Shown here: positions 2,127 through 49,548 of the stretch, piece by piece | How positions within the stretch are numbered: position 1 is the stretch's first letter | How the letters are laid out: each line of letters starts with the position of its first letter | Assembly: GCA_016186635.1 (NCBI GenBank) | Contig: JACPLI010000020.1 | Coordinates: 3,548-67,547 of the forward strand | Length of the DNA stretch: 64,000 nt | Reading direction: 5' to 3' | Source of the DNA: Candidatus Liptonbacteria bacterium | GTDB lineage: Bacteria; Patescibacteriota; Minisyncoccia; UBA6257; 2-01-FULL-56-20 | Made by a program: the position numbers and the translations under genes | Notes under the pieces: model-generated | Database searches by the model: none | Seen by the model: the letters and a program-made list of their open reading frames with translations, nothing else | Told to the model about the DNA's origin: nothing

Positions 2127-2903
2127 ATGGCTGACGAAACGAAATCGGCATACCCGCAGGCGCTCGGCGCCGAGCTGAATGATGCGGCGCGCGAGATGAT
2201 TGCCGCAGGCGTATTTTACGGGAAAAAGAAGAGCAAGACGCACCCGCGCATGAAGGCGTGGGTCTTGGCGAACCGCGGGGGCATTGAGATTATCAATTTG
2301 GCGAAAACGGAAGAAGAGCTTTCGCGCGCGGCGGAGTTTGTGAAGGGGAAGGCAAAAGCGGGAGAACTTTTTCTTTTTGTGGGTACCCAGCCGGCGGCGC
2401 AGGATGCGGTGCAATCGGTCGCCGCGGAGTTTAAGATGCCGTTCGTGGTGAACCGGTGGGTGGGAGGAACGCTCACCAATTTCAAAATGATTGCCCAGCG
2501 GGTGGAATACATGAAAAAGCTCCGGACGGGTCTTGCCACGGGGATGTTCGACAAGTACACGAAGAAAGAGCGCCTTGGAATTGAGCGGGAGCTTGGGCGC
2601 CTTATAGAACTTATGGCGGGGCTTGAAGCGCTCGCGCGCGTTCCAGACGCGCTTGTCGTCATTGACCCTGTCGTGCATGAAACGGCGGTGCGCGAAGCCC
2701 TCCAGCTGGGGATTCCGGTCATTGCGCTTGCCGATACCGATGCGGACCCCGACGCAGTGACGCGCATGGTCCCGGGAAATGCGAAATCGAAGAAAAGCAT
2801 CGAATGGTTTTTGGGGAGAGTGAAGGCGGCTGTTGCGGAGGGGAAGAGTGCGGTACAATCTACCGAAGGAGTAATCGCCAATAACGCGAATGGAGGCAAA
2901 TAA
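2127..2903 (+). CDS. rpsB: 30S ribosomal protein S2
   Basis: S2 signature VVNRWVGGTLTNFKMI. The last 12 codons (VIANNANGGK*) are encoded by a family-A palindromic repeat. Confidence 0.9.
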   Translation: MADETKSAYPQALGAELNDAAREMIAAGVFYGKKKSKTHPRMKAWVLANRGGIEIINLAKTEEELSRAAEFVKGKAKAGELFLFVGTQPAAQDAVQSVAAEFKMPFVVNRWVGGTLTNFKMIAQRVEYMKKLRTGLATGMFDKYTKKERLGIERELGRLIELMAGLEALARVPDALVVIDPVVHETAVREALQLGIPVIALADTDADPDAVTRMVPGNAKSKKSIEWFLGRVKAAVAEGKSAVQSTEGVIANNANGGK

Positions 2904-2912
2904 CGCGAATAA
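2867..2912. repeat. Family-A palindromic repeat (GGAGTAATCGCSAATAACGCGAATG core), copy 1
   Basis: ggagtaatcgccaataacgcgaatggaggcaaataacgcgaat. It overlaps the rpsB stop and the tsf start. Confidence 0.8.
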
Positions 2913-3348
2913 GGATGCAGTTCAAAAATTGAGGGAGGCGACGGGCGCGGGGGTGATGGAGTGCCACCGGGCGCTCAAGGACGCCGGCGGCGATTTTGCC
3001 AAGGCGGCGGCGCTTATCGGCGAGCAGGGACTTTCCAAGGTGGAAAAGCGCGCGGGGCGGGAAACCAGCGCGGGGTTGGTGCACGCGTACGTGCACGGCG
3101 AGCGTATCGGTGTCTTGCTCCACGTTTCCGCGGAGACCGATTTTGTGGTGCGTTCGGAGCCTTTCAAGGCGCTCGCGCACGAGCTTGCAATGCACATTGC
3201 CGCGGCGGCGCCGAAGGACATCGCGGAACTTCTCGGTCAGCCCTACATCCGCGACGAGAAGAAAACGGTGAACGACCTCATCGGCGAGGTGATTGCGAAG
3301 GTGGGGGAGAATATACAGGTGAAGGAGTTTTATAGGATAGAACTTTAA
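2890..3348 (+). CDS. tsf: Elongation factor Ts, short form
   Basis: UBA-like N-terminus LREATGAGVMECHRALKDAGGDFAKAAALI. The gene sits directly downstream of rpsB. The first 6 codons lie in the family-A repeat, so the true start is uncertain. Confidence 0.8.
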   Translation: MEANNANKDAVQKLREATGAGVMECHRALKDAGGDFAKAAALIGEQGLSKVEKRAGRETSAGLVHAYVHGERIGVLLHVSAETDFVVRSEPFKALAHELAMHIAAAAPKDIAELLGQPYIRDEKKTVNDLIGEVIAKVGENIQVKEFYRIEL

Positions 3349-3438
3349 AGGAGTAATCGCTAATAACGCGAATGAAGGCAAATAACGCAAATAGGATTCG
3401 CATTATTGAATCCAAATTCGCATTATTCGCGAATACTC
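3349..3438. repeat. Family-A palindromic repeat, full two-arm copy 2
   Basis: Left arm ggagtaatcgctaataacgcgaatgaaggcaaataacgc. Right arm, inverted, ggattcgcattattgaatccaaattcgcattattcgcgaatactcc. Confidence 0.85.
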
Positions 3439-3439
3439 C

Positions 3440-3802
3440 ATGTTAGAATTTGTCCTTGCAAACATCGCAATGCTCTCCGCGGGAGTGGCGCTTTTTCTCG
3501 TTGCGCACTCACTGCCGCGCGTGGGGGAAAGTGAAACGGAGCCGAAATGGTTTCTGGAGCGGTGGGTTACGCTGGAATTTCCCGAGAAACTCGACGGGGC
3601 ATTTAACAGCTTCGCGGGAAAGTTTTTGAGGAAGCTCCGCGTGGTTATACTGAAATTCGACAACGCGGTATCCGGGACACTGAAGCGCTTCAAGAGCGAG
3701 AATGGCAACGGGAAATCGCTTGACTTTAAAGAGATGATGGGGGATAAAGGGGGGGGCGAAGCGAAGGATGAGGATGAGGGCAAGCGAAAAAAATCCAAAT
3801 AA
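3440..3802 (+). CDS. Hypothetical small membrane protein with Lys/Glu/Gly-rich tail
   Basis: 120-aa ORF with an N-terminal hydrophobic helix. It is flanked by repeat elements. No recognisable domain. Confidence 0.35.
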   Translation: MLEFVLANIAMLSAGVALFLVAHSLPRVGESETEPKWFLERWVTLEFPEKLDGAFNSFAGKFLRKLRVVILKFDNAVSGTLKRFKSENGNGKSLDFKEMMGDKGGGEAKDEDEGKRKKSK

Positions 3803-3882
3803 TATGCATACGCTCGTCTATACAATCCCGCTCCGCCAGCCGGCGGACAGCGGGACCTCATAGAAGCAGTTCTTTGGGAAGA

Positions 3883-3992
3883 GGAGTAATCGCTCGTACC
3901 GCGAATGAAGGCAAATCTGCCTGTCGGTAGGCAAATAACGCAAGTAGGATTCGCATTATTGAATCCAAATTCGCATTATTCGCGAATACTCC
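3883..3992. repeat. Family-A palindromic repeat copy 3 with nested family-D motif
   Basis: gaggagtaatcgctcgtaccgcgaatgaaggcaaa + tctgcctgtcggtaggca + aataacgcaagtaggattcgcattattgaatccaaattcgcattattcgcgaatactcc. Confidence 0.8.
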
Positions 3993-3998
3993 CTATAT

Positions 3999-4083
3999 GC
4001 GCAGGTGGTAGAGCGGCCAATTACACGACGCTGTAAACGTCGCGCCCTTTCGGGCTACGGGGGTTCGAATCCCTCCCTGCGCA
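3999..4083 (+). tRNA. tRNA-Tyr (anticodon GTA) with long variable arm, no encoded CCA
   Basis: Hand-folded. Acceptor gcgcagg/cctgcgc, D-stem gtag/ttac, anticodon stem cgacg/cgtcg with loop ctGTAaa, variable arm gccc-ttt-c-gggc, T-arm ggggg-ttcgaat-ccctc, discriminator A. Confidence 0.8.
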
Positions 4084-4193
4084 CACTAAACCCCCGACCC
4101 CCGTCTGGGACACCTTCTGGTTTCCCACCCGCCCCGCTTCACCGCGGGGCTCCTTCCAACACGGGGGTTTAGTTCGCTTTGCTCCGCAAAGCG

Positions 4194-4214
4194 GCGCAGG
4201 GAGGGATTCGAACC
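4194..4214 (-). repeat. Inverted 21-nt copy of the tRNA-Tyr 3' end (T-arm plus acceptor)
   Basis: gcgcagggagggattcgaacc is the exact reverse complement of tRNA positions 4062-4082. No 5' half follows. It sits inside a nest of long hairpins, for example ctaaacccccg...cgggggtttag. Confidence 0.7.
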
Positions 4215-4307
4215 GAAGGAGGGGTTTGGAGGAGGGCATGAAATGTCATAATTGGGACGATCGCCCCAATTATGACATTACAAGAGCAGAAACTACCCGT
4301 TAGAGAT

Positions 4308-4390
4308 GTCATTCCCATGAAAATGGGAATCCAGGGTATTGCAACAAAGCCATATTCTGGATCCCCGCGTGCGCGAGGATGACAGGACGT
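4308..4390. repeat. Family-E MITE-like element (TIR gtcattccc ... gggaatgac), copy 1
   Basis: gtcattcccatgaaaatgggaatccagggtattgcaacaaagccatattctggatccccgcgtgcgcgaggatgacagg. The same architecture appears at 17278 and 38513. Confidence 0.65.
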
Positions 4391-4500
4391 CATGAGAAAA
4401 CCCAGCCTTCTGTGCTCACTGCATAGTCATCTTTTGTTATCTACGAGCGCGGCGAGCATTAATGGGAAATTTGCCATGCCATGCTCAAGCTGATAGCATC

Positions 4501-7272
4501 ATGAATATGCCTAAAATCACAAAACTTTTCGCTCTCGCCGCAATTTTTGCCGCTCTGTTTTTTCTGCCCGGCATTACCGGCCTTATTACCGACTGGTGGT
4601 GGTTTACGGAAGTGAGCCATTCCCAGATTTTTGTAAAAATGCTGGTCACGAAACTAACGCTGTTTGGAACTGTCGGCTTGTTCGCCGCCGTTTTCTTGCT
4701 TGCCAGTTTCCGTCTGGCGCTTCGCTCAAAAACTTCCTGGACGGCAGTGCTGCCGGCGGGCATAACCGGCCAGGAGGTGAATATAGCCGACCGTATCGTG
4801 AAAAAAGTCGTTGTGGCGGTGAGCGTGGTCATCGCGCTCTTTTTCGGGCTTGCCGCCGCCGGCAATTGGCAGGAAACGCTGAAATTTATTTCTGGCGTGC
4901 CGTTTGGCGCAGTGGACCCCATCTTCGGTAAAGATGTCGGCTTTTACCTGTTCACCCTTCCCGTTGTTCAGATGGGGTTGGGGATGCTGCAATTTCTCAT
5001 TCTCACATCGCTCGCCGGCGCCGCAGTCCTTTACTTTTTTCAAGGACGACTTCGCTTTTTAAGCCGGCGCGCCGACCCGCACACCTCGCCGGCGAGTGGA
5101 GACGAAACTGGCGCCCAATCGTTTGAGCGGTTGCAAGTGGACCGCGCGGCAAGAATGCATCTCGGCGTTTTGCTCGCGATGCTTCTCGCGGGCATTGCCG
5201 TCGGCGCCTATCTTTCTCGTTTTGCGCTGCTTACGGGCCCGGGCGGCCTAGTATTCGGCGCGACGTACACAGACGTCGCCGTGAGAATGCCGATGCTGTG
5301 GATTTCGGCGGCCATCGCACTTGTTGCGGCGGTTTTCGCCGCCCTTTGGGCGTGGAAAGGGAAATTATCGCCACTCATTGCGGCGATAACTTTATATGTT
5401 GTTATAGAGTTCGCCGGAGCAGTGGTTCCGTCTCTTGTCCAAAAAGTGGCGGTTGCCCCCAACGAGCTGGTAAAAGAAACGCCGTTCATTCAGCATAATA
5501 TTGCCGCTACCCGCCGGGGATTCGCGCTTGATGCGATTGAGGAGCGCAACATCTCGGGAGATGCGCCCATCACCAGCGCCGACATCGCGGCCAACAATCT
5601 TACGGTTAAAAACGTGCGGCTTTGGGACAGGAGCCCTCTTTTGTCGACTTTTTCGCAGGTGCAGGAAATCAGAACGTATTACGAGTTTGCCGAAGTTGAT
5701 AATGACCGGTACATCATAGACGGAGAGATCCGCCAGATTATGCTTTCCCCCCGGGAGCTGTCTTCGGCGAGTTTGCCGAACAGGAATTGGATCAATGAAC
5801 GTTTGACCTTTACGCACGGGTACGGCGTGGCGGCTGGACCGGTGAATCAAGTTACTCCGGAAGGACTTCCGGTTTTGTTTGTGAAAGATTTGCCGCCCAA
5901 ATCGGACGCGGAAGAGCTTGCAATTTCTCGCCCCGAAATCTACTTCGGCGAACTTTCGAACGATTATGTCGTTGTCAAAACAAAATCCCGCGAGTTCGAT
6001 TATCCCAAAGGCGAGGAAAATATTTATGCAACATACGAGGGCGCGGGAGGAGTAGAGATTAACTCTTTTTTGAGGCGCGCGTTGTACGCGATAAAGTTTC
6101 AATCGCTGAAACTGTTTTTATCGAACGACATAACCAGCGAGAGCAGGATTCTCTACCACCGCACCATCGCCGAGAGAGTCGCCAAAATTGCGCCGTTTCT
6201 GGCGTTTGATAGGGATCCCTATATCGCCATTGCCGACGGCAAAGTGTATTGGATCGCCGATGCCTATACCACCAGTAACCGCTACCCGTATTCGGAACTC
6301 GTGCGATTGAATGGCGATACCGTAAACTATATCAGGAACTCGGTAAAAATAGTGGTTGATGCGTATGACGGCAGCGTCGTTTTCTACCAGGCGGATATCG
6401 AGGACCCCATCATACGCACCTATAGCGCGATTTTTCCCGGAACATTCCGGCCGATGTCGGAGATTCCCGAAAGCCTGGTTCCTCATTTGCGCTACCCTGA
6501 AGACATCTTCACCCTGCAGACCGCCGCGTACTCCGTCTATCATATGGACGATGCGCAGATTTTTTACAACAAAGAAGACCAGTGGGAAATTCCGGCTATT
6601 GCGGCAGAAGGAGAAGGGGTGTCTGCGGGCGGAGTTCCGCAAATGTCGCCCCGGCACATCATTATGAAGCTGCCGGACGAGAAAAAAGAGGAATATGTCT
6701 TGATGCTGCCCTTTACCCCCCGGGCAAAAGACAATCTATCCGCGTGGATGGTTGCCCGCAACGATGGAGAGCGCTACGGCAAGTTGCTGGTGTACCGCTT
6801 TCCTAAAGACAAACTTGTGTTCGGACCAAAACAAGTTATCGGCAGAATCAATCAGGACACCGAGATCAGCCAGCAGATTACGCTATGGAGCCAAGGCGGG
6901 TCGCAGGTAATCCAAGGCACGCTGTTGGTTATTCCGATTGAAGAATCGCTCTTGTATGTGCGTCCACTCTATCTTAAGGCCGAATCCGGAAAAATTCCCG
7001 AGTTAAAGCGGGTGGTGGTGGCGTACGAAAATAAAATAGCCATGGCGGAAACGTTAGAGGAAGGATTGATGAGAATCTTTGGCGGCGCGGCAGGAGCACG
7101 GCCGCAGGGCATTACGACGGCAAGGCCGCAAGCGGCGCCTTCTCAAAGCTTTCAGGGGCGCATACAAAGAGCCGCCGCTGCGTACGAAGAGGCGCTCCGT
7201 GCGCAAAGGGATGGCGACTGGGCGCGCTATGGCGAAGCGATAAAACGGCTGGGAAATATCTTGAAGCAATAG
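4501..7272 (+). CDS. UPF0182 family membrane protein
   Basis: ~920 aa with an N-terminal block of TM helices and a large extracytoplasmic domain. Motifs are typical of the UPF0182 (YybT-unrelated) family found in Actinobacteria and CPR. Start at M14 of the ORF. Confidence 0.8.
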   Translation: MNMPKITKLFALAAIFAALFFLPGITGLITDWWWFTEVSHSQIFVKMLVTKLTLFGTVGLFAAVFLLASFRLALRSKTSWTAVLPAGITGQEVNIADRIVKKVVVAVSVVIALFFGLAAAGNWQETLKFISGVPFGAVDPIFGKDVGFYLFTLPVVQMGLGMLQFLILTSLAGAAVLYFFQGRLRFLSRRADPHTSPASGDETGAQSFERLQVDRAARMHLGVLLAMLLAGIAVGAYLSRFALLTGPGGLVFGATYTDVAVRMPMLWISAAIALVAAVFAALWAWKGKLSPLIAAITLYVVIEFAGAVVPSLVQKVAVAPNELVKETPFIQHNIAATRRGFALDAIEERNISGDAPITSADIAANNLTVKNVRLWDRSPLLSTFSQVQEIRTYYEFAEVDNDRYIIDGEIRQIMLSPRELSSASLPNRNWINERLTFTHGYGVAAGPVNQVTPEGLPVLFVKDLPPKSDAEELAISRPEIYFGELSNDYVVVKTKSREFDYPKGEENIYATYEGAGGVEINSFLRRALYAIKFQSLKLFLSNDITSESRILYHRTIAERVAKIAPFLAFDRDPYIAIADGKVYWIADAYTTSNRYPYSELVRLNGDTVNYIRNSVKIVVDAYDGSVVFYQADIEDPIIRTYSAIFPGTFRPMSEIPESLVPHLRYPEDIFTLQTAAYSVYHMDDAQIFYNKEDQWEIPAIAAEGEGVSAGGVPQMSPRHIIMKLPDEKKEEYVLMLPFTPRAKDNLSAWMVARNDGERYGKLLVYRFPKDKLVFGPKQVIGRINQDTEISQQITLWSQGGSQVIQGTLLVIPIEESLLYVRPLYLKAESGKIPELKRVVVAYENKIAMAETLEEGLMRIFGGAAGARPQGITTARPQAAPSQSFQGRIQRAAAAYEEALRAQRDGDWARYGEAIKRLGNILKQ

Positions 7273-7307
7273 ATAATGGAAGAATATGGGGAAAAACGGC
7301 GGGACGC

Positions 7308-7538
7308 CTACTTTTTCACCGCGCAGAACCTTCTTACAATTTCGTTTTCGTAAGAATCGCCCGTGCAGTACTTCGCGCGGAGTTCCTTTTCCAGGGCTTC
7401 TGCGTGGGCTTGCTTCAGCGCGGCGGCTTGCTCGATGGGGACAATCACCACGTAATACCACAACGCGAACACCCCGAGCGTCAGCACTACCATTATGGCT
7501 GCCACTCCAAGCAATCTCCTCACCGAGATAGGTTCCAT
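7308..7538 (-). CDS. Hypothetical small membrane protein (76 aa)
   Basis: MEPISVRRLLGVAAIMVVLTLGVFALWYYVVIV... has one TM helix and an RBS (aggaaagga) upstream. The rest of the 197-aa minus ORF is an N-terminal read-through. Confidence 0.4.
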   Translation of the reverse strand: MEPISVRRLLGVAAIMVVLTLGVFALWYYVVIVPIEQAAALKQAHAEALEKELRAKYCTGDSYENEIVRRFCAVKK

Positions 7539-7590
7539 TTCCTTTCCTGTAACTATAGCAAACTTGCCCGGCGGGAGGTACAATGGCGGT

Positions 7591-8082
7591 ATGCAGGAAT
7601 ATGCGGGCGAGGCGGTTGTCTTGCGGCGGGAGCCGCACGGCGAGCAGGACAGCCGCGTATCGCTCTTTACGAAGCGGTATGGCAAACTGACCGCGAAGGC
7701 GAAGAGCGCCCGGAAAATCACCTCCAAACTCTCGCCGCATCTTGAGCCGGGGCTCGTGACAGACATCCGGCTCGTGGAGAAGAACGATATGCTTGTGACG
7801 GACGCCTTGAAGCGGGAGAAGCTCGCGCTCCCGCCTTCCACGCTTTTCTCTCTTGACCGAGTGCTCGCGGAAGCGGTTCCCGAAGAAGAACTGTGGAGCA
7901 TGATTCGAAACGGGGATTTTTCATGGCGTGCAGCGCTTGGCGAATTAGGGTGGGACCCGCGGGAAGCCGCGTGCGCGGTATGCGCCGCTTCGCCCGAGGC
8001 GTTTCACGCGGGACGGCAGGAATTTTTTTGTTCTTCGTGTGCGATGAAGATGAAAGTAGGAGACCTCATCGTGTTAGGATAA
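7591..8082 (+). CDS. recO: DNA repair protein RecO (short form)
   Basis: OB-fold N-terminus AVVLRREPHGEQDSRVSLFTKRYGKL and a C-terminal Zn finger CAVCAAS...FFCSSCA. Confidence 0.75.
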   Translation: MQEYAGEAVVLRREPHGEQDSRVSLFTKRYGKLTAKAKSARKITSKLSPHLEPGLVTDIRLVEKNDMLVTDALKREKLALPPSTLFSLDRVLAEAVPEEELWSMIRNGDFSWRAALGELGWDPREAACAVCAASPEAFHAGRQEFFCSSCAMKMKVGDLIVLG

Positions 8083-8115
8083 TTAGGTCAATTAGAGCAA
8101 TTAGAGATTTCTTCA

Positions 8116-15945: not shown

Positions 15946-15954
15946 TACATACAC

Positions 15955-28382: not shown

Positions 28383-28391
28383 TTACCTTTT

Positions 28392-28447
28392 CAACGCGTC
28401 GAAGTCAGACTTCCTGAAGGAAGTCTGACTTCGGCAGATTGATGCAG
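28392..28447. repeat. Family-B palindrome (GAAGTCRGACTTC), copy 1
   Basis: ttcaacgcgtcgaagtcagacttcctgaaggaagtctgacttcggcagattgatg. Confidence 0.8.
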
Positions 28448-28457: not shown

Positions 28458-28874
28458 ATGCGGCAGATTCTTAAAGATGGCGCAGTATATATCCTCCGTT
28501 TCGATAAGGGCGAGGAAGTGCTCACGGGGCTGATTGCATTCGCGCGGCAGATGGATATTCACGCGGGAACATTTTCCGGCATCGGGGCGGCCTCGAGAGT
28601 GGCGCTTTCTTATTATGACTTTGAAAAGAAAGAATATTTGAGCACAGAACTTCGGGAAGTGGAAATCGCCTCGCTTACCGGCAATATCGGGATTTTGAAA
28701 GGGGAAATAGCCATACACGCGCACGGAGTGTTCTCTGGAAGGGATATGGCGGCAAAGGCGGGACATGTGAAGGAAATCGTGGTATCAGGAACATGTGAAA
28801 TGCGTTTCGAGGCGCTCGCAGGGAAACTTGAACGCGCGCATGACGCGACAACGGGACTGAATTTGATACAGTAA
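28458..28874 (+). CDS. PPC-domain (DUF296) protein
   Basis: GEEVLTGLIAFARQMDIHAGTFSGIGAASRVALSYYD...GNIGILKGEIAIHAHGVFSG. Family-B palindromes bracket it on both sides. Confidence 0.6.
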   Translation: MRQILKDGAVYILRFDKGEEVLTGLIAFARQMDIHAGTFSGIGAASRVALSYYDFEKKEYLSTELREVEIASLTGNIGILKGEIAIHAHGVFSGRDMAAKAGHVKEIVVSGTCEMRFEALAGKLERAHDATTGLNLIQ

Positions 28875-28876: not shown

Positions 28877-28966
28877 ATTCAACGTGTTGAAGTCGGACTT
28901 CCTGCCTGCGCTACGCCGAAGGCTCCGGCAAGGCGAGCAGGAAGTCCGACTTCGGCAGATTGATGT
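28877..28966. repeat. Family-B palindrome copy 2 with internal D-like insert
   Basis: ttcaacgtgttgaagtcggacttcctgcctgcgctacgccgaaggctccggcaaggcgagcaggaagtccgacttcggcagattgatg. Confidence 0.8.
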
Positions 28967-34447: not shown

Positions 34448-36559
34448 ATGCAAAAATTTGAACTCGCAAAAGAGTTGAAGCCAGCAGGTGATCAACCAAG
34501 CGCTATCGAGAAGCTTGTGGCGGGATTGAAGAGGGGATACCAGCATCAGACGCTTTTGGGAGTTACGGGGAGCGGAAAGACGTTTACTGTCGCGAACGTG
34601 ATTGCAAAGATACAGAAGCCGACGCTGGTGATCGCGCACAACAAGACGCTCGCGGCCCAGCTTACGAATGAATTCAGGGAGCTTTTCCCGAAGAACTCGG
34701 TAAATTATTTCGTGTCGTACTACGACTACTACCAGCCGGAGGCGTATATTCCATCGTCCGACACCTACATAGACAAAGAAGCGCTTATCAACGACGAGAT
34801 TGATAAACTGCGCCATGCGGCGACGACGGCGCTCCTCACGCGGCGGGACGTAATTGTGGTTGCATCCGTCTCATGTATCTACGGCTTGGGCGCGCCGGAG
34901 ACGTACGCGGAGAACATTTTCCGGTTCAAGGTTGGAGACAGGGTTGAGCGGAAGAATTTTGCGCGAAAGCTTGTTGAATTGCAATTCACGCGCACGAACA
35001 TAAATTTGAAGCGCGGTACGTTCCGCCTTCGTGGAGAGAATTGGGAAATAATGCCGCCGGACAGGGAAGTGATTTACATGCTCGAAGTGCGAAGTTCAAC
35101 TATCGCGGCGATATATGCAACAGACCCTGTAGTTGGGTTTCAGCCCGGCAAGACACCGCCAGTCGAGGAAGTCATCATTCCTCCGGCAAAACATTTCATT
35201 ACCGAAGCGGACGCGCGCGAGCGGGCAATCGGCTTGATTCAGGAGGAGCTCAGGGTGCAACTCAAGTATTTTGAGGAAAATAAGAAATTTCTCGAAGCCG
35301 AACGGCTCGAGCGCCGTACAAAGTTCGACATTGCGATGATACGGGAGATCGGCTACTGCCACGGCATCGAGAACTATTCGCGGCACCTTTCGGGCCGCGC
35401 GGCAGGTACTCCTCCTGAAACTCTTCTCGACTATTTTATGCAGGGTTCGAAATCGCATTCGGATGCAAAGGTTCGACCTTTAGGGGGTTCTCAAGGTCGA
35501 ACCTTGGAAGAACCCGATTTCCTGACCATAATTGACGAATCCCACATCACCGTGCCGCAGATTCAGGGGATGTATCATGGCGACGCGTCGCGGAAGAAAA
35601 CGCTCGTCGAATACGGGTTCCGTCTTCCCTCCGCCGCGGACAACCGGCCATTGAAATTTGCGGAGTTTGAAAAGCGCATAGGGCAGACGATATATACATC
35701 CGCCACGCCGGGACCGTATGAGTTGAAGAAGAGCGGGGTAAAAGCTCGACCTTTAAGGGATTCTCAAGGTCGAGCCTTGGGAGAAACCGGAGGTCAAGTT
35801 GTGGAGCAAATTATCCGCCCTACTGGCCTCGTAGACCCCAAAATCACCATCCGGCCCGCGCGCGGGCAGGTGGACGACCTGATTCCTCGGATCGAGGAGC
35901 GCGTTGCCGCAAAGGAGCGGGTGCTCGTGACGACGCTCACCAAGAAAATGGCGGAGGATTTATCCGCATATCTCGAAGGAAAGAAAATGAAAGTGGCGTA
36001 TCTCCACAGCGACGTGAAAACGCTTGACCGTATCCGCATTCTTACGAACTTGCGGAAGGGTTCGGAGGCGAAGGGCGGATTCGACGTGCTCGTGGGAGTG
36101 AATCTCCTGCGCGAAGGGCTCGACTTGCCCGAAGTGTCGCTCGTCGCGATTCTTGATGCGGACAAGGAGGGCTTTCTCCGGAGCGAGACCTCGCTCATCC
36201 AGACCATCGGGCGCGCGGCGCGAAACGTGCGCGGAGAGGTTTTGATGTATGCCGACCACATCACGGGTTCGATTAAGCGCGCGGCGGGGGAGACCGAGCG
36301 GCGCCGAAAACTTCAACTTGCCTACAATAAAGAACATGGCATTACGCCGAAGACGGTGATGAAGAAAATCACGAGTATCTTGCCGGAAGAGGTGTTGAAG
36401 CTCGAAATGAAGCCGATTCCGAAATCCAAATCCGCAATAGAGAAGCTTATCCGCGAGAAGGAGCGGGAGATGCGCGAAGCGGCGAAAGAGCTGAACTTTG
36501 AATTAGCGGCGATTTTACGAGATGAGATAAAGGTTCTTAAGAGGAGTAATCGCGAATAG
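34448..36559 (+). CDS. uvrB: Excinuclease ABC subunit B
   Basis: GVTGSGKTF, DESHVT-like IDESHITVPQ, QTIYTSATPG, VVEQIIRPTGLVDP, and a C-terminal UVR motif. Two in-frame family-C insertions. The stop codon lies inside a family-A repeat (KRSNRE*). Confidence 0.95.
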   Translation: MQKFELAKELKPAGDQPSAIEKLVAGLKRGYQHQTLLGVTGSGKTFTVANVIAKIQKPTLVIAHNKTLAAQLTNEFRELFPKNSVNYFVSYYDYYQPEAYIPSSDTYIDKEALINDEIDKLRHAATTALLTRRDVIVVASVSCIYGLGAPETYAENIFRFKVGDRVERKNFARKLVELQFTRTNINLKRGTFRLRGENWEIMPPDREVIYMLEVRSSTIAAIYATDPVVGFQPGKTPPVEEVIIPPAKHFITEADARERAIGLIQEELRVQLKYFEENKKFLEAERLERRTKFDIAMIREIGYCHGIENYSRHLSGRAAGTPPETLLDYFMQGSKSHSDAKVRPLGGSQGRTLEEPDFLTIIDESHITVPQIQGMYHGDASRKKTLVEYGFRLPSAADNRPLKFAEFEKRIGQTIYTSATPGPYELKKSGVKARPLRDSQGRALGETGGQVVEQIIRPTGLVDPKITIRPARGQVDDLIPRIEERVAAKERVLVTTLTKKMAEDLSAYLEGKKMKVAYLHSDVKTLDRIRILTNLRKGSEAKGGFDVLVGVNLLREGLDLPEVSLVAILDADKEGFLRSETSLIQTIGRAARNVRGEVLMYADHITGSIKRAAGETERRRKLQLAYNKEHGITPKTVMKKITSILPEEVLKLEMKPIPKSKSAIEKLIREKEREMREAAKELNFELAAILRDEIKVLKRSNRE
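35467..35507. repeat. Family-C double palindrome copy 4, in-frame inside uvrB
   Basis: aaaggttcgacctttagggggttctcaaggtcgaaccttgg encodes KVRPLGGSQGRTLE, which is extra relative to canonical UvrB between LxDY and IDESH. Confidence 0.85.
35740..35779. repeat. Family-C double palindrome copy 5, in-frame inside uvrB
   Basis: aaagctcgacctttaagggattctcaaggtcgagccttgg encodes KARPLRDSQGRALG, inserted between YELKKSG and GQVVEQIIRPTGL. Confidence 0.85.
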
Positions 36560-36590
36560 CGCGAATTTGGATTTAATAACGCGAATAAAT
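36541..36590. repeat. Family-A repeat (half-element) copy 4 at the uvrB stop
   Basis: gaggagtaatcgcgaatagcgcgaatttggatttaataacgcgaataaa. Confidence 0.75.
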
Positions 36591-36995
36591 CTCTTGCCCA
36601 TTTTATCCACAGGAAAGGGTTAGTTGTCCACCGATTCTCCACATTTTTTACTTGACTTTTTGAAACGAGGCGGGAAAATTATTACGGTTCCTAGGATCGC
36701 GCACAACTTCCGTTCAAAGTAATTTTTCACCACAAGAACCCGAAGCATGACGCGCCTGTGGGTACGTCATTGAGGGTCAAAACTTGTGAAACCGGCGGAG
36801 GAGTTTGAGCGCGAGACGAAGAACCAAGATAGAGTTTCCTGCACAGCCGCAGGAAACTCTCCGTATAACCAAACTTTTATCTACCACCGCCCCCGCAGGC
36901 GGTTTTAATTTTTTCCGGTGTTCTGCTACACTTTCTCTTGCTACCCCCTATGCATCACATGAAGGGGGCGATTTGCATGTTGCGGAATCAATTTC

Positions 36996-43523: not shown

Positions 43524-43583
43524 GTCGCGCCGTGAGTACGGAATGCGGTGGCCTCAACAGAGTGGTTGCTACTTTACAACTTT

Positions 43584-43916: not shown

Positions 43917-43925
43917 AATTTTTGC

Positions 43926-43967
43926 GGGCGAGTGGTTCTATTCCATTCGCCCCGCTCAATTGAGTCC
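43926..43967 (+). repeat. Cassette-array direct repeat R3 (3' module only)
   Basis: gggcgagtggttctattccattcgccccgctcaattgagtcc. Confidence 0.7.
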
Positions 43968-44038
43968 GAGAGTGAAAGATTCTCGCGAGCTGAACAGAGC
44001 GATTTAAAAATAAAAACGTGAAAGGAGGTGAAAAGCAA

Positions 44039-44302
44039 ATGCTGAAAATCCCGAAAAACGGGGCGGAAATCCAAACGGTCAAAGGGATACAATATCTCGT
44101 TGCCCGGCTGGATGCGCAGAAAACCTGCGCGGACTACCTGAACGCGCTTCGGAGAGGAGAGACCGTGGTTGTGCCGCTTTCAAAAAGGACACATCTCACG
44201 GGGCTTCTTAAGAGGGAATCCATTTTTACTCGGCAAAAGACACTTGTTGCCGGGAAATGGATCTCTTTCACTCCGTGTGAAGAAAGGGAGTTCAAGCCTT
44301 AA
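44039..44302 (+). CDS. Hypothetical protein (87 aa)
   Basis: Strong RBS aaggaggtg 8 nt upstream of the ATG. A terminator follows. Confidence 0.45.
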   Translation: MLKIPKNGAEIQTVKGIQYLVARLDAQKTCADYLNALRRGETVVVPLSKRTHLTGLLKRESIFTRQKTLVAGKWISFTPCEEREFKP

Positions 44303-44362
44303 CTGCGGCTTTGGCACGCGGGGCAGAGCGACTGCCTGGCAACGGAATTGTCGCAAAAATTT

Positions 44363-44395
44363 GGAGGTGCAAAAACGCACCTCCTTTTGCTTTTT
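44363..44395 (+). terminator. Rho-independent terminator
   Basis: ggaggtgc-aaaaac-gcacctcc followed by ttttgcttttta. Confidence 0.8.
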
Positions 44396-44420
44396 ATACG
44401 ACGGGGTATACTCCAAGCGC

Positions 44421-45761
44421 ATGACTGATTTTGACCTGCCTGCTGGCAGGCAGGGAAAATTAAAAGACAAAGTGATACATGATTTTCCGGAGACGCCGGG
44501 GGTGTATACGATGCGGGGTGCAACAAAAAAGGTGCTTTACATCGGCAAAGCGGGAAATTTGCGGCGGCGGGTATCAAGCTATTTTCTACGCGCACACGAC
44601 GCGCGAATCGAGCGACTGATGCAGGAAGTGCGGGAGATTAGCTACGAGGAAACGGATACCGCGCTTGAGGCGCTCATTCTCGAGTCAAAACTCATTAAGG
44701 AAAAGCATCCGGTTTATAACATCCGCGAGCAGGATGACAAAAGTTTTCTCTATGTGGCGATTACGCGCGAGGCGTTCCCGCGGGTGCTCCTCGTGAGAGG
44801 AAAAGATTTCAATGCGGGAAGGATTAGCCTTCTGAAGGAGGCTAAGCCTTCCAAAGCATTCGGGCCATTTACCTCCGGCACGAGTATCCGCGAGGCGCTA
44901 CGGATTTTGAGAAGGATATTTCCGTGGAATACGCATAGGTTAGAAGGTGGAAAGGTGGAAAGGTTAGAAGCGGAGAAGCGGCCATGCTTCGATTACGAAG
45001 TGGGCTTGTGCCCGGGGACGTGTATCGGGGAGATAGATAAAAAAGAGTATCGCAAAAATATACACCGCCTCATAGACGTTTTTGAGGGAAAGAAGAAACG
45101 AGTGTTACTCGGGCTGGAGCGCGAAATGAAGAAAGCGAGTAAAGCGTTGGAATTTGAGAACGCCGCAAAACTGCGGAAACAGATTTTCGCGCTGAAGCAC
45201 ATACAGGATGTGGCGTTACTGAATCAAGATGCCCCAAGGTTTAACCTTGAGGATTCGAAGGTTAAACCTTCGATACGGATTGAAGGATATGACATCTCGA
45301 ACATTTCCGGGACTTCGGCGGTGGGTGCGATGGTAGTTTTTCTAAACGGGGAGCCGGCGAAAAGCGAGTATCGGAAATTTAAGATTTGCACGGTTGCGCA
45401 ATCCGATGATATCGGGATGCTCGAAGAGGTACTGCGAAGGAGGTTTAGGAGACATGGGGCGGAGGATGTTAAGGTTCAACCTTTCGGCACATCAAGGTTG
45501 AACCTTTGGGCGATGCCGAATCTTATTTTGGTTGACGGCGGGAGGGGACAAGTGAACGCGGCGCGGGAGGTGCTTGCAGAGGCGGAGCTCCGAATCCCGC
45601 TCGTGGGCATTGCGAAGGGACCGGAACGGAAAAGGAATGATGTCATCGGCAGAGTTCCAGTGGGGGTCTCGCTCGCCACGCTCATCAGAGTCCGCGACGA
45701 GGCACACCGGTTTGCGATTCGGTATCACAGAAAACTCCGAAGAACCAGGGCGTTTGAGTGA
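44421..45761 (+). CDS. uvrC: Excinuclease ABC subunit C, short form lacking the C-terminal HhH domain
   Basis: GIY-YIG N-terminus PGVYTM...VLYIGKAGNLRRRVSSYF, UVR motif, RNase H-like endonuclease domain, and EAHRFAIRYHR near the end. Three in-frame repeat insertions. Confidence 0.9.
   Translation: MTDFDLPAGRQGKLKDKVIHDFPETPGVYTMRGATKKVLYIGKAGNLRRRVSSYFLRAHDARIERLMQEVREISYEETDTALEALILESKLIKEKHPVYNIREQDDKSFLYVAITREAFPRVLLVRGKDFNAGRISLLKEAKPSKAFGPFTSGTSIREALRILRRIFPWNTHRLEGGKVERLEAEKRPCFDYEVGLCPGTCIGEIDKKEYRKNIHRLIDVFEGKKKRVLLGLEREMKKASKALEFENAAKLRKQIFALKHIQDVALLNQDAPRFNLEDSKVKPSIRIEGYDISNISGTSAVGAMVVFLNGEPAKSEYRKFKICTVAQSDDIGMLEEVLRRRFRRHGAEDVKVQPFGTSRLNLWAMPNLILVDGGRGQVNAAREVLAEAELRIPLVGIAKGPERKRNDVIGRVPVGVSLATLIRVRDEAHRFAIRYHRKLRRTRAFE
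44435..44453. repeat. Family-D palindrome in the uvrC N-terminus
   Basis: cctgcctgctggcaggcagg encodes LPAGRQG. Confidence 0.8.
45236..45272. repeat. Family-C double palindrome copy 7, in-frame inside uvrC
   Basis: caaggtttaaccttgaggattcgaaggttaaacctt encodes PRFNLEDSKVKPS. Confidence 0.85.
45471..45509. repeat. Family-C double palindrome copy 8, in-frame inside uvrC
   Basis: aaggttcaacctttcggcacatcaaggttgaacctttgg encodes VKVQPFGTSRLNLW. Confidence 0.85.
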
Positions 45762-45849
45762 TGCCCGGAACGAGCGCTTTTCATACTTACCCATTCGCAC
45801 GAATGGGTAAGTGTGAATTGGAGATTTTGACTCGTGGTATGCTGAAGGA

Positions 45850-46425
45850 ATGGCAGTTCTCGCAAATTCGTTGAGCGATGCGGGGGTTGTGCGGGTTCTT
45901 AGAGTTGGCGGCGTGGCGGTGATTCCGACGGACACAATTTACGGCATCGTGGGATCGGCGCTCCGCGAGAAAACAGTCGTGCGCATTTACAAACTGCGGA
46001 AGCGGAACCCAAAGAAGCCGCTCATCGTGCTTATCGGGTCGCTCCGTGAGCTTTCGCGCGTTGGGGTGCGTCTTGGGGCGCTTCGCCGTCCTCTGTTCCG
46101 ATTCCTACGGGGTGTGTGGCCCGGGAGGGTGAGCGTGGCATTGCCTGTCAAAAGCAAGAAATTCGGATACCTCCACCGAGGGACGGGATATATTGCCTTC
46201 CGCGTGCCAGCAAAGAAAGCGTTGCGGGAACTGCTTATGAAAACCGGGCCGCTCGTGGCGCCAAGTGCGAACGTCGAGGGAAAATCTCCCGCGACGACTC
46301 TTCGCGAAGCGCAGAGGTACTTTGGAGATAGGGCGGATTGCTATGTGGATGGAGGAAAAGTAATGCGCAAGCCCTCGACGCTTGTGAAGATATTGGAGGG
46401 GAAGCCGGTGGTGATACGAAAATAA
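45850..46425 (+). CDS. tsaC: L-threonylcarbamoyladenylate synthase (TsaC/YrdC/Sua5 family)
   Basis: VIPTDTIYGIVGSA and VAPSANVEGKSPATT. Confidence 0.85.
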   Translation: MAVLANSLSDAGVVRVLRVGGVAVIPTDTIYGIVGSALREKTVVRIYKLRKRNPKKPLIVLIGSLRELSRVGVRLGALRRPLFRFLRGVWPGRVSVALPVKSKKFGYLHRGTGYIAFRVPAKKALRELLMKTGPLVAPSANVEGKSPATTLREAQRYFGDRADCYVDGGKVMRKPSTLVKILEGKPVVIRK

Positions 46426-46427
46426 TA

Positions 46428-46519
46428 AGGAGTATTCGCGCCGTGCCTGCCGGCAGGCAGGAATAATGCTAATATAGATTCAATAATGCGAATCCATTCG
46501 CGTTATTGGCGATTACTCC
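46428..46519. repeat. Family-A repeat copy 5 with nested family-D palindrome
   Basis: aggagtattcgcgccgtgcctgccggcaggcaggaataatgctaatatagattcaataatgcgaatccattcgcgttattggcgattactcc. The right arm supplies MAITP at the FAD-oxidase start. Confidence 0.8.
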
Positions 46520-48170
46520 TCTTATGCTCGCTGACGAACTCCGGAAAATAATCAAGGGCGACGCGGAAGCGGACGACACGACGCTTGAGAAATACAGCCG
46601 CGACTTTTCGATTTTCAAGGTGGTGCCGGAGGTGGTGGTGTTCCCGAGGGACACCGAAGACGTGAAAGCGCTGGTGAAGTTTGCGAGCGCGGCGCGGAAA
46701 AGAGGAAGGAAAATCTCATTGACGGGGCGCGCGGCGGGCACGGATATGACGGGCGGGCCGCTTACGGAATCCGTGGTGGTGGACTTCACGCGGCACATGA
46801 ATCGGATTAAGGAAATCGGCAAGGATTATGTGGTGGTGGAGCCGGGAGTGTACTATCGGGACCTCGAACCGGAGCTTGCGCGCCGGGGGCTCATGTATCC
46901 GGCGTACCCCGCATCGAAGGATTACTGCGCCATCGGCGGCATGGTGATGAACAATGCGGGAGGCGAGAAGACGCTTCTCTACGGCAAGACCGAGCAGTAT
47001 GTGGCGCAAATAAAAATGGTGCTCGCGGATGGGGAGGAGCATGTGATAAAGCCCATGTCGCGCGGCGCGCTTGAGGAATGCGCGGGAAAGCGAGATTTCG
47101 AGTGTGCGGCATGGAGAAAGCTCCGGCGGATGCTCGAGCGGCGCGCGAACGCGATTGCGGCGGCGCGCCCGGACACGTCAAAGAATTCCTCCGGTTATTC
47201 GCTCTGGAACGTGTGGGACGGGAATACCTTTGACCCGGTGAAACTTTTCGTGGGCTCGCAAGGGACGCTTGGGCTCATGACAGAGGTAAAATTGCGGCTC
47301 GTGCCGAAGCCGGCGCACACCCAGCTTGTAGTGCTTTTCCTGCGCGATATCGAGCGCATCGGCGACCTCGTGAACGAGATTCTCAAAGTGAAACCGGAGA
47401 GCATTGAGTCCTACGACGACAAGACGCTCGGCGTGGTGCTCCGTTATCTTCCCAGTTTCATTTGGTCCATGAAAGGGGATTTCCTGAAGCTTGCATGGAG
47501 TTTCCTTCCAGAGGTGGGGATGATGCTTCGCGGCGGGGTTCCGAAGATGATTCTCTTGGTGTCGCTCACTGCCGATACAGAACAGGAACTTCATGCGCGC
47601 ACCATCAAGCTGGTGCACATGGTGCGGCGGGAGTTCCGGCTCCCTGTCCGCGCGGTGCGCGATAAGGCGGAAGAGGAAAAGTATTGGACGATTCGGCGCC
47701 AGAGCTTTGCGCTCCTTCATGGGCACATCAAGGACCGCGACACCGCGCCCTTCATTGATGACATCGCGGTACAGCCGCGGCACCTCCCTGAATTTTTGCC
47801 GAAGCTCAATGCGATTCTTGAGCGCTATAAAGACAAGCTTATCTATACGATTGCCGGGCACCCGGGGGACGGAAACTTCCATATTATCCCGCTCATGGAT
47901 TTGAAGAATCCAAAAGTGCGCGCGCTCATTCCCGCCATTTCCGATGAGGTATATGCGCTTGTGCTGCGCTATCGCGGCTCTATCACTGCCGAGCACAACG
48001 ACGGCATCATCCGCACGCCCTACGTAAAGGAGATGTATGGCAGGGAGGTGTACGCGCTCTTTGAGGAGGTGAAGCACACTTTCGACCCGCAGGGCGTTTT
48101 CAACCCTGGAAAGAAAGTGAGAGGGACGCTCAAATATGCGCTCGAGCATATCAGGAGTAATCGCGAATAA
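46506..48170 (+). CDS. FAD-linked oxidase (GlcD / D-lactate dehydrogenase-like)
   Basis: FAD-binding PCMH pattern with RGLMYPAYPASKDYCAIGGMVMNNAGGEK. The C-terminus RSNRE* is encoded by a family-A repeat. Confidence 0.85.
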   Translation: MAITPLMLADELRKIIKGDAEADDTTLEKYSRDFSIFKVVPEVVVFPRDTEDVKALVKFASAARKRGRKISLTGRAAGTDMTGGPLTESVVVDFTRHMNRIKEIGKDYVVVEPGVYYRDLEPELARRGLMYPAYPASKDYCAIGGMVMNNAGGEKTLLYGKTEQYVAQIKMVLADGEEHVIKPMSRGALEECAGKRDFECAAWRKLRRMLERRANAIAAARPDTSKNSSGYSLWNVWDGNTFDPVKLFVGSQGTLGLMTEVKLRLVPKPAHTQLVVLFLRDIERIGDLVNEILKVKPESIESYDDKTLGVVLRYLPSFIWSMKGDFLKLAWSFLPEVGMMLRGGVPKMILLVSLTADTEQELHARTIKLVHMVRREFRLPVRAVRDKAEEEKYWTIRRQSFALLHGHIKDRDTAPFIDDIAVQPRHLPEFLPKLNAILERYKDKLIYTIAGHPGDGNFHIIPLMDLKNPKVRALIPAISDEVYALVLRYRGSITAEHNDGIIRTPYVKEMYGREVYALFEEVKHTFDPQGVFNPGKKVRGTLKYALEHIRSNRE

Positions 48171-48262
48171 TGCGAATGGGGGCAAATAATGCGAATGAAG
48201 AAGCATAAGAAGAAATAATTTGCATTATTGAAATTACAATTTGCATTATTCGCGATTACTCC
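48153..48262. repeat. Family-A repeat copy 6 (full two-arm)
   Basis: aggagtaatcgcgaataatgcgaatgggggcaaataatgcgaatg...tttgcattattgaaattacaatttgcattattcgcgattactccc. Confidence 0.85.
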
Positions 48263-48263
48263 C

Positions 48264-48548
48264 ATGGAGGCGCCGAGCGCGTTCAAGATAAGGATTTTAG
48301 GGCGTGTGCAGGGCGTGGGATTCCGCTATGCGGCATATAAGGAAGCGGTGCGCCGCGGCATTCGGGGTTTTGTGAGGAACGAGCGCGACGGGAGCGTGTA
48401 CATGGAAGTAGAGGGAAGTCGTGAAATACTTGACGCGTTCACCGAGTGGTGCAGGAAGGGATTTCTTGGCGCGCATGTTGAGAAGGTGATTACGGAGGAA
48501 GCGCCAGTTCGTGGTTTTCAAAAATTCGAGATACAATCACTCATATGA
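48264..48548 (+). CDS. acyP: Acylphosphatase
   Basis: VQGVGFRYAAYKEAVRRGIRGFVRNERDGSVYMEVEG. Confidence 0.8.
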   Translation: MEAPSAFKIRILGRVQGVGFRYAAYKEAVRRGIRGFVRNERDGSVYMEVEGSREILDAFTEWCRKGFLGAHVEKVITEEAPVRGFQKFEIQSLI

Positions 48549-49516
48549 TGTATGACACTATTAGGGACTTTCATCGGCAATTTTCGTTTCGCCCGGAAAT
48601 TGAGAATAGGGGGCGGCTTGCGAGGAGAAAGAAAATCCTGGCGGCGGGGATGGGGGGTTCCCAGCTTGCGGCGACGCTCCTTCCGCTGTTCAGTCCGAAA
48701 CTCGACATTATCCATCATCGCGACTATGGGCTCCCGGCGGCGAACATCCGCGATCGGCTTGTGATTGCAAGCTCGTACTCGGGGAATACCGAGGAGACGT
48801 TGAGCGCGTTTCACGAAGCGCGGAGGCGGAAGGTATCGCTTCTTGCGATTGCTTCGGGCGGGAAACTCCTCGCGCGTGCGCGGCGTTTTAAAGTTCCCTG
48901 TATTGAGCTCCCCAACCTTCATATTGACCCTCGTTCGGCGCTGGGGGTAAGCACCATGGCGTTTCTTGCGGCAATCGGCGTGCGCAAAGAACTCCGCGAA
49001 GCATCGGGACTCGCGCGGACGCTTATGCCGCGTGCGCTTGAGCCGAGGGGGCAAGCGCTCGCGCGGCAGCTCAAGGGTAGCGTGCCTGTCGTGTACAGCT
49101 CGGCGCGAAATGCGCCGCTCGCGTATATTTGGAAAATTAAATTAAACGAGACAGGAAAGATTCCGGCATTCATGAACGTGCTCCCGGAGTTGAATCACAA
49201 CGAGATGAACGGCTTTGATGTGACGCCGCATACAAAAGAGCTTTGTTGCCCATTTCATTTCGTTTTTCTTGAGGATCCAGCCGACACCCCGAGAATCCAA
49301 AAAAGGATGAAGGTGCTTGCATCTCTCTACCGCAGGCGCGGATTGCCGGTGACTCCGGTTGCACTTCACGGAGAAGGGATGTTCAAGAAGGCGTTTTCTT
49401 CGGTTGTGCTCTCTGATTGGACTGCATATCACGCCGCGCTCATGTACCACAGGAATCCCGACGGCATCCCAATGGTGGAAGAATTCAAGCGGCTCATAAG
49501 GAGTAATCGGGAATAA
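48545..49516 (+). CDS. Bifunctional phosphoglucose/phosphomannose isomerase (SIS-domain, archaeal-type PGI/PMI)
   Basis: GMGGSQLAA and SYSGNTEETL are SIS motifs. The C-terminus RSNRE* comes from a family-A repeat. Confidence 0.8.
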   Translation: MMYDTIRDFHRQFSFRPEIENRGRLARRKKILAAGMGGSQLAATLLPLFSPKLDIIHHRDYGLPAANIRDRLVIASSYSGNTEETLSAFHEARRRKVSLLAIASGGKLLARARRFKVPCIELPNLHIDPRSALGVSTMAFLAAIGVRKELREASGLARTLMPRALEPRGQALARQLKGSVPVVYSSARNAPLAYIWKIKLNETGKIPAFMNVLPELNHNEMNGFDVTPHTKELCCPFHFVFLEDPADTPRIQKRMKVLASLYRRRGLPVTPVALHGEGMFKKAFSSVVLSDWTAYHAALMYHRNPDGIPMVEEFKRLIRSNRE

Positions 49517-49548
49517 TTGGTATCATTAGTACCCATTCGCGTATTGGC
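49498..49548. repeat. Family-A repeat copy 7 (degenerate)
   Basis: aggagtaatcgggaataattggtatcattagtacccattcgcgtattgg. Confidence 0.6.

Follow-up and report, generated by a model that had tools for sequence, protein, structure and literature searches.

The 64,000-nucleotide stretch of a Candidatus Liptonbacteria genome analyzed here (contig JACPLI010000020.1, positions 3,548 to 67,547; hereafter the window) raises the question of why unrelated genes end in, or begin beside, copies of one palindromic repeat, which we refer to as family A. A preliminary description of this DNA had read family A as a portable module for gene ends and starts whose hairpin likely doubles as a terminator or RNA-stability element. 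The reading as a portable end module is descriptively right, and we find in addition that family A is a clade-wide repeat family, that it turns over at orthologous sites, and that its arms flank a nuclease gene, all of which had been missed. The explanation that we favor, with a probability of roughly 0.6, is that family A resembles the REPINs (doublets of repetitive extragenic palindromic [REP] sequences) and miniature inverted-repeat transposable elements (MITEs) of other bacteria, has a cognate nuclease, and represents the gene-less miniature form of a small Parcubacteria unit that is tolerated at gene junctions. It is thus unlikely to be just a terminator and probably constitutes a new REPIN/MITE-like system.

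Family A copies at gene junctions of the window

Pattern and hidden Markov model (HMM) searches identified seven family A loci with a total of 11 arms in the window, where none are expected by chance. Four of these are full hairpin elements (c2, c3, c5, and c6), and three are half or chimeric copies (c1, c4, and c7). An HMM built from 131 arms of other genomes recovered the same seven loci and nothing further. A 25-mer from the arm matched the window eight times at three or fewer mismatches, and none of 100 shuffled sequences gave any match. Furthermore, three sequencing runs independently yielded assemblies of the identical region, open reading frames (ORFs) continue uninterrupted into the arms, and other genomes show the same tails. 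The idea that the repeats reflect chance similarity or an assembly or annotation artifact, with true stops upstream and tails produced by frameshifts or sequencing errors, is refuted by the shuffling, the translated tails, and the independent assemblies and retains only a negligible probability.

Of the 11 arm ends in the window, 10 overlap a gene or tRNA boundary or are no more than 6 nt away from one. All copies except c5 are on the forward strand, as are the genes whose coordinates are given below. c1 (2868 to 2912) is a single left arm with two AATAACGCGAAT boxes that covers the last 11 codons and stop of rpsB (2127 to 2903) and the ATG of tsf (2890 to 3348, encoding a short EF-Ts), the first eight codons of which also lie in c1. 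c2 (3350 to 3439) is a full 90-bp element; the stop of tsf is a TAA of its own that ends 1 nt ahead of the element, which corrects the preliminary description, and the ATG of ORF120 (3440) abuts its right end. c3 (3883 to 3992; 110 bp) consists of c2 plus a nested GC-rich palindrome of ~20 bp (~3917 to 3936) and is followed 6 nt past its right end by tRNA-Tyr. c4 (36543 to 36590) is a single left arm into which uvrB (34448 to 36559) runs before ending at a TAG (36557 to 36559). c5 (46429 to 46519, reverse strand) is a full 91-bp element of inverted polarity that contains a nested GC palindrome (46441 to 46461) and separates the Sua5/YrdC stop (46425) from the ATG of the gene for an FAD-linked oxidase (46524 to 48170). 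This gene has c6 (48154 to 48262; 109 bp), a near-perfect hairpin, on its other side and ends in the left arm of c6 (TAA, 48168 to 48170), with the acylphosphatase gene (48264 to 48548) beginning 1 nt past the element. Finally, c7 (49500 to 49558) is a chimera in which a family A left end (GGAGTAATCGGGAATAA) is joined to the right-hand portion of an element from a different repeat family (TTGGTATCATTAGTACC..CATTCGCGTATTGGCATCG); the gene for a bifunctional PGI/PMI-type SIS protein (48545 to 49516) terminates in it (TAA, 49514 to 49516), and its right end is directly abutted by the ATG (49559) of a PDDEXK_1 gene. The c7 tail (49517 to 49558) belongs to a further repeat family that occupies the c3 junction in the related locus L041 and the c5 junction in L077.

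Translations bore out the repeat-encoded protein tails of the preliminary description. UvrB, the FAD oxidase, and PGI/PMI all end in RSNRE, read from AGG AGT AAT CGC/CGG GAA within the arm and followed by TAG or TAA, and RpsB ends in GVIANNANGGK (terminating as STEGVIANNANGGK) with its stop inside the repeat. Pfam domain ends place essentially complete native domains just ahead of these tails. Orthologs of the FAD oxidase end in HISSARE (or HISSAREGKK), HISSARQ, or HVRSARP, and c6 has therefore replaced the last 5 to 8 codons of this gene, at a break in gene order. Less of the claim that starts lie inside the opposite arm was upheld. The tsf ATG at 2890 is indeed within the repeat, but in the single arm of c1. 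The FAD-oxidase ATG (46524) is 4 nt outside c5, orthologs and independent gene calls begin with MLADEL, and the previously described N terminus MAITP is merely a mechanical TTG start. Independent gene calls also agree with an acylphosphatase start 1 nt outside c6.

The preliminary description had also proposed that family D palindromes nest in family A, and those nested in c3 and c5 are real. Small GC-rich palindromes of the CTGCCTGCCGGCAGGCAGG type are inserted at differing positions within family A arms and are also present in other genomes (L076, L002, and L067). Their distribution suggests a tiny palindrome, distinct from family A, that moves or duplicates by itself.

Arm architecture and spread across Patescibacteria

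Each arm has GGAGTAATCGC at its terminus and then two 12-bp boxes (AATAAYGCGAAT) at a spacing of 19 to 21 bp. The full arm, ~45 nt in length, reads GGAGTAATCGCnAATAAYGCGAAT, followed by 8 to 9 variable bases and the second AATAAYGCGAAT box. Gene-less elements range from 66 to 176 bp, with most between 90 and 110 bp. Exact matches to the 24-nt core GGAGTAWTCGCNAATAAYGCGAAT were found in 75 stretches of 34 species-level genomes, every one of which belongs to the Patescibacteria (Lipton-, Harrison-, Colwell-, and Wolfebacteria, Paceibacteria, and other metagenome-assembled genomes). These stretches, which amount to ~600 kb of loci, contain 48 full elements and 64 single arms.

Statistics for the ends of 152 arms, from the 34 genomes plus the window, demonstrated that behavior as a gene-boundary module holds far beyond the window. 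CAT, the start codon of the outward strand, was found 0 or 1 nt outside 48 of the 152 arms compared with ~5 expected, and in 26 arms a preceding TA combined with the first G of the arm to form TAG. Most of the arms that did not abut a start codon overlapped a stop or provided one. Long ORFs running into arms stopped at -2, +4, +11/+14, or +24 onward. The layout of the 48 full elements was a stop overlapping or inside the left end, the element, 0 to 2 nt, and an ATG; 12 of 44 single arms without a partner also abutted an ATG. The outer end of the arm provides a stop in each frame: TA|G or G GAG TAA in one, AGG AGT AAT CGC GAA TAA (RSNRE and stop) in another, and GGA GTA ATC GCG AAT AAY GCG AAT with a later stop (GVIANNAN and onward) in the third. 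An upstream gene clipped by an element is thereby closed within 0 to 15 codons. Of the two outcomes that the preliminary description had named as refuting its reading, neither occurred: stops did not lie upstream of the repeat, and copies were associated with gene termini.

The hosts offer a setting in which such junctions may be usable. A Shine-Dalgarno sequence is missing from most genes in the window, and many genes have a TAnnnT motif 6 to 9 nt before the ATG, which suggests that leaderless or near-leaderless mRNAs may be widespread in this lineage. This -10-like motif is often TACAAT, with examples before the starts at 2127, 8116, 11891, 25340, 28994, 48545, and 62019. Across these densely coded genomes, gene junctions are the sole sites at which elements persist, and the element ends suit such sites. 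The probable reasons are that stops are present in every frame at these ends and that host genes require no Shine-Dalgarno leader. A TAATG-like junction would accept an element only if a stop is restored on one side and an ATG is usable on the other, and the arm ends fit this demand. Insertion would be tolerated there because the majority of host genes do without a Shine-Dalgarno sequence and have leaders that are very short or missing. The tails and starts encoded by the repeat may then be a tolerated by-product of insertion at stop-start junctions, with some copies, such as that at rpsB|tsf, likely fixed for a long time since. In practical terms, protein termini as annotated in many genomes of the Candidate Phyla Radiation (CPR) are altered by these repeats (RSNRE, GVIANNAN.., and MNNAN..), which also mark points of rearrangement and can interrupt assemblies.

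GxxExxY nuclease genes bracketed by the arms

At six loci, arms in + and - orientation lie 433 to 517 bp apart and enclose a gene of ~125 to 140 codons. The enclosed gene encodes a GxxExxY protein (TIGR04256/PF13366, PDDEXK_3), with scores of 109 to 115 bits against a cut-off of 35 for TIGR04256 and 106 to 111 bits against a cut-off of 22 for PF13366. Units of arm, gene, and arm are present in L013, L028, L043, L051, L053, L074, L087, L092, L106, L108, and L113. GxxExxY genes associated with other arm families (TACGAA boxes, TAGTATCGATGC, AATATACAAAT, and AATATCGCNAAT) are likewise bracketed by inverted arms. Altogether, 16 of 16 GxxExxY genes examined in these bacteria were bracketed in this manner, each with its right arm 0 to 3 nt from the next ATG, and gene-bearing units were always codirectional with their neighbors. 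The catalytic D..E-x-K residues (D73, E83, and K85) are invariant in these proteins, and an AlphaFold2 model (pLDDT of 91.5) has a PD-(D/E)XK core closest to those of the Cas4 and lambda-exonuclease types. Two copies are decaying: that in L028 contains stops in frame, and that in L051 has lost its ELK motif.

Protein and arm families track each other. GxxExxY proteins share 48 to 71% identity within family A and 52 to 63% within the T family, compared with 30 to 49% between groups, and contig L108 carries two GxxExxY genes with two different arm families. The box also contributes to the nuclease itself: 38 of the 120 best GxxExxY homologs have a box-encoded NNAN in their N termini, and many further homologs begin with MRI, MQI, or MLI, which correspond to ATG-CGA/CAA/CTA-AT of the box. 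Gene-bearing and gene-less forms can occupy equivalent positions. A gene-bearing unit lies between prfB and ftsE in L051, L053, L087, and L106, and L069 has a 116-bp gene-less element directly upstream of ftsE, which is the relation expected between a miniature element and its gene-bearing unit. In Wolfebacteria populations (L109 to L112, ~1860 to 2066) that encode an identical GxxExxY protein, a 74-bp segment composed of the last 34 nt of the GxxExxY gene and the right arm is present in one, two, or three tandem copies before an archease gene.

From these sequence relationships, we propose that the boxes are binding sites of the cognate GxxExxY nuclease, which would maintain the arms and occasionally spread them. 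A 2012 survey of PD-(D/E)XK proteins, the sole functional classification that we found, lists the family as "unknown"; other papers mentioning it give no function, and we found none linking it to repeats. Searches of the literature on CPR palindromic repeats, REPINs, MITEs, leaderless mRNAs, GxxExxY, and PF13366 returned nothing describing this system. If true, our proposal would provide a function and a testable substrate for a widespread protein family, would add a second enzyme type to the REPIN paradigm, and would show how selfish or semidomesticated repeats persist in compact genomes by means of their own stop codons and Shine-Dalgarno-independent starts.

A different relation between gene and arms is conceivable, in which the nuclease gene is a secondary invader, a selfish gene similar to a homing endonuclease that entered palindrome centers and does not mobilize the arms. 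The palindromes would then have arisen and spread by other means, for example through recombination, slippage during replication, or a transposase that escaped notice. The gene invariably has a complete two-box arm directly on each side, an arrangement resembling a miniature element cut open at its center, and elements do take other nested insertions, such as the GC palindromes in c3, c5, and L076. However, the correspondence of protein clades with arm families implies specific recognition either way, and the building of the nuclease start and first residues (MNNAN.., MRI.., or MQI..) by the arm box in a large share of homologs argues for long coevolution and against a recent invasion. In addition, no transposase was present between arms anywhere in the ~600 kb of loci. 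We therefore regard invasion of preexisting palindromes as quite improbable.

Comparison with known repeat systems

The closest parallels are with the REPIN-RAYT system of Proteobacteria, in which the RAYT is a REP-associated tyrosine transposase. Both systems have two inverted arms that form a hairpin-capable unit of ~70 to 110 nt with many dispersed copies, and in both these arms also enclose a gene that is present in few copies and inherited vertically, with long-term persistence of the system. Several cognate pairs of gene and repeat family may also occur in one genome, as with the two in L108. The systems differ in the enzyme, since family A brackets a PD-(D/E)XK GxxExxY nuclease and the RAYT is a Y1 HuH transposase; no RAYT (PF01797) was seen in the loci examined, although whole genomes were not scanned. 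Furthermore, the REP unit is an imperfect palindrome with a GTAG head, whereas the family A arm contains direct 12-bp boxes and does not fold singly, and REPINs are strictly extragenic, whereas family A copies overlap coding ends and starts.

Family A also shares features with MITEs such as the Correia elements of Neisseria, ERIC/IRU, and RUP. These are short, noncoding, multicopy elements with terminal inverted repeats that lie near gene ends, are cotranscribed with neighbors, vary in presence between relatives, and form nested and tandem copies. The 48 full copies in ~600 kb of loci and the four in the window are likewise short, noncoding, dispersed, and built of inverted repeats. Family A differs from MITEs in being flush with stop and start codons, in having an arm sequence conserved across order-level divergence, and in lacking both a consistent TA or other target duplication and a known parent of the insertion sequence (IS) type. 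The units that share its ends encode the GxxExxY nuclease and no known transposase. Between arm pairs 260 to 2500 bp apart, where we looked for IS-type transposases, there were only host genes or GxxExxY. The IS5 terminal repeat (GGAAGGTGCGAATAAG) may resemble the arm, and no IS5-type gene was seen.

Two other systems warrant comparison. Rickettsia palindromic elements (RPEs) are palindromes in a reduced genome that are translated as part of host proteins. They sit in frame inside genes, whereas translation of family A is confined to a short tail at the C terminus or to the start of the N terminus. The window does contain an RPE-like case from another family: a 79-nt palindrome (ACTCGTAATTAGTAAATCGAAATTAGTAAAT...; 1919 to 1997) is in frame in the C-terminal beta-barrel domain of an mnmA-like ORF (864/900 to 2090), which reads through it. 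Integron attC sites resemble family A as imperfect palindromes of 60 to 140 bp that lie exactly between co-oriented genes and have conserved mismatches between their halves. We rejected attC as the identity of family A, the ends of which are GGAGTAATCGC/GCGATTACTCC and which has no GTTRRRY/RYYYAAC core. Moreover, the flanked genes are housekeeping genes (rpsB, tsf, uvrB, and tRNA) scattered over the chromosome, and no integrase was annotated among the neighbors inspected.

Turnover and conservation at orthologous junctions

Sites of c2, c3, c5, and c6 differ among L041, L059, L076, L077, and L081, and thus family A exhibits the presence-absence polymorphism characteristic of MITEs. In L041, a relative with ~75% nucleotide identity, c1 is 100% identical, and unrelated palindromic families occupy the c2 and c3 sites. 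The c2 site is empty in L059, in which the tsf stop and next start overlap as TAATG. At the c5 junction, orthologs of the FAD oxidase have family A in L076, another family in L077, and a plain TATAAT-N6-7-ATG in L078 and L081, and c6 is absent from all compared orthologs, with gene order changing at that point. A copy 97% identical to c2 is found at secY|adk in the relative of ~75% identity. Comparison of five genomes at rpsB|tsf revealed an arm read in one common frame in four of them (the window, L041, L006, and L035 from Harrisonbacteria), and the fifth, L059, retains only a decayed remnant. This turnover at some junctions and in-frame conservation at rpsB|tsf together indicate that some copies are recent and that others are ancient and protected.

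Several observations weigh against family A as a REPIN/MITE-like family with a cognate nuclease. Nuclease units occur in conserved synteny (aspS|CTP-transferase and prfB|ftsE) across genomes with 50 to 80% protein identity and are therefore mostly inherited vertically, as are RAYT genes, without visible jumping. No recent transposition of a gene-bearing unit was seen, with each of two exact GxxExxY proteins found on many contigs having one genomic context. A consistent target-site duplication is missing, and TA/TA flanks only ~4 of 48 full elements. The 64-kb window contains neither a GxxExxY gene nor the prfB|ftsE or aspS|CTP-transferase junction. To our knowledge, no biochemical activity has been reported for GxxExxY, and binding or movement of the arms by this protein is a proposal. 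Finally, arm sequences across genomes are more conserved than the surrounding proteins, as is the 24-nt core of the in-frame rpsB|tsf arm relative to its flanking proteins. Such conservation could reflect a host function rather than selfish persistence.

A host function is the essence of a competing explanation, that family A is a regulatory cassette kept as intergenic "punctuation" and that the nuclease gene is incidental. Proposed roles include a hairpin that couples downstream to upstream translation, a hairpin that bridges the Shine-Dalgarno-like GGAG at the left end to the ATG at the right end, an RNA processing or stability site, and an outward promoter giving near-leaderless mRNAs. The constancy of the rpsB|tsf arm, including its 100% identity between two species with ~75%-identical genes, is in keeping with such a cassette, as is the occurrence of an ATG 0 to 2 nt from the arm end far above chance, also beside all nuclease units. 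A polarity bias points in the same direction: in 24 of 32 informative elements, an arm with a GC-rich spacer is on the stop side and one with an AT-rich spacer is on the start side, in agreement with the orientation of gene-bearing units. However, the same junctions in relatives work with unrelated repeats, a plain TATAAT-N6-7-ATG, or a TAATG overlap, and c5 has the opposite polarity at an otherwise equivalent junction.

RNA structure, promoters, and terminators

Full copies fold strongly as RNA (-32 to -48 kcal/mol; z scores of -4.7 to -12.1), as exemplified by c2 (-31.7 kcal/mol, z of -6.4) and c6 (-47.9 kcal/mol, z of -12.1), and this strength would suit a hairpin with a host role. In contrast, the half copies c1, c4, and c7 and single arms have no structure (z of about 0), yet these hairpin-incapable forms behave alike at boundaries. 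When 18 elements were aligned with RNAalifold, none of the 27 consensus pairs had compensatory base changes (covariation term of +0.18), with all pairs being invariant or varying on one side only. Mismatches between arms, such as left-arm GCTAAT versus right-arm GCGAAT, are conserved, and conservation is concentrated in the 12-bp boxes. The lack of compensatory pairs and the conserved mismatches therefore imply constraint on the primary sequence of the boxes, a pattern that points to a DNA-binding protein as the likely agent rather than an RNA helix.

These results do not support the hairpin functions proposed in the preliminary description. For a terminator, no U-tract terminator was called at the elements, and the right arm stands directly before an ATG. 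For an RNA-stability element, unstructured half copies are nonetheless placed at boundaries, and compensatory pairs are lacking. Each box does contain TTCGCA and CATTAT, which by eye form weak -35-like and -10-like hexamers in line with an outward promoter, but a sigma-70 consensus scan gave no match in or at the elements. An Rfam scan of the window at gathering thresholds found only tRNA-Tyr. Considering this evidence together with the turnover of junctions, we judge a host regulatory cassette with an incidental nuclease gene to be unlikely. It is similarly doubtful that arms of a REPIN/MITE-like family have additionally become a promoter, coupling device, or processing site.

GxxExxY genes beyond the CPR

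We also inspected six plasmid-borne GxxExxY genes from other phyla. On megaplasmids of Gemmatirosa kalamazoonensis, the GxxExxY gene lies 36 nt from a 73-bp palindrome of the form GGAGA(CGCGGATnn)x3. This palindrome, with three or four CGCGGAT boxes per arm (L102, 990 to 1062; L117, 901 to 973), is dispersed over two megaplasmids at 17 or more places, among them a copy that lacks the gene. The Bernardetia and Treponema copies have significant flanking inverted repeats of 12 nt and 11 nt, respectively. Direct repeats flank the Prevotella and Fusobacteria genes, and no flanking repeats were found for the Persicobacter gene. The direct repeats, and a gene that merely adjoins a complete palindrome in Gemmatirosa, would also be compatible with GxxExxY as a secondary invader of palindromes.

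The link between GxxExxY genes and repeats may be general, though it is not uniform. A broader and more tentative reading, which we consider possible at somewhat under even odds, is that GxxExxY (PF13366/TIGR04256), a large orphan family of small PD-(D/E)XK nucleases, comprises dedicated partners of dispersed palindromic repeats. These pairs would form either a new class of mobile elements or a second "REPIN-like" system, one that operates without a RAYT, with each clade recognizing its own iterated box of 8 to 12 bp. In Parcubacteria, the elements would now form gene junctions by supplying stops and abutting starts.

Other repeats and features in the window

Additional features near family A copies were observed in the window. 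Between ORF120 and c3, a noncoding block of ~80 nt (3803 to 3882, including TATACAAT) is nearly 100% identical to that of L041, the relative of ~75% identity, apart from a 13-nt indel and two substitutions. This block may be a tRNA-Tyr promoter or leader or a small RNA and has no Rfam match. The last 21 nt of tRNA-Tyr (4062 to 4082) are repeated as a perfect inverted copy 111 nt downstream (4194 to 4214), which could be a remnant of integration or rearrangement. In the uvrB-uvrA spacer after c4 (36595 to 36650), there is a cluster of DnaA-box-like sequences (TTATCCACA, TTGTCCACC, and TCTCCACA), and TTATCCACAGGG directly abuts a family A arm in another Liptonbacteria locus (L021, 330 to 340).

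Other palindrome families were also present. One (TCAACGYGTYGAAGTCRGACTTCCTG...; 28391 to 28442 and 28879 to 28963) lies on both sides of a PCC-domain gene (28458 to 28874), again at gene boundaries. Yet another family is represented by a 68-nt palindrome (52629 to 52696) that begins with GGAGT, ends with CTCC, and is preceded by a terminator-like hairpin with a T-run at ~52594 to 52627.

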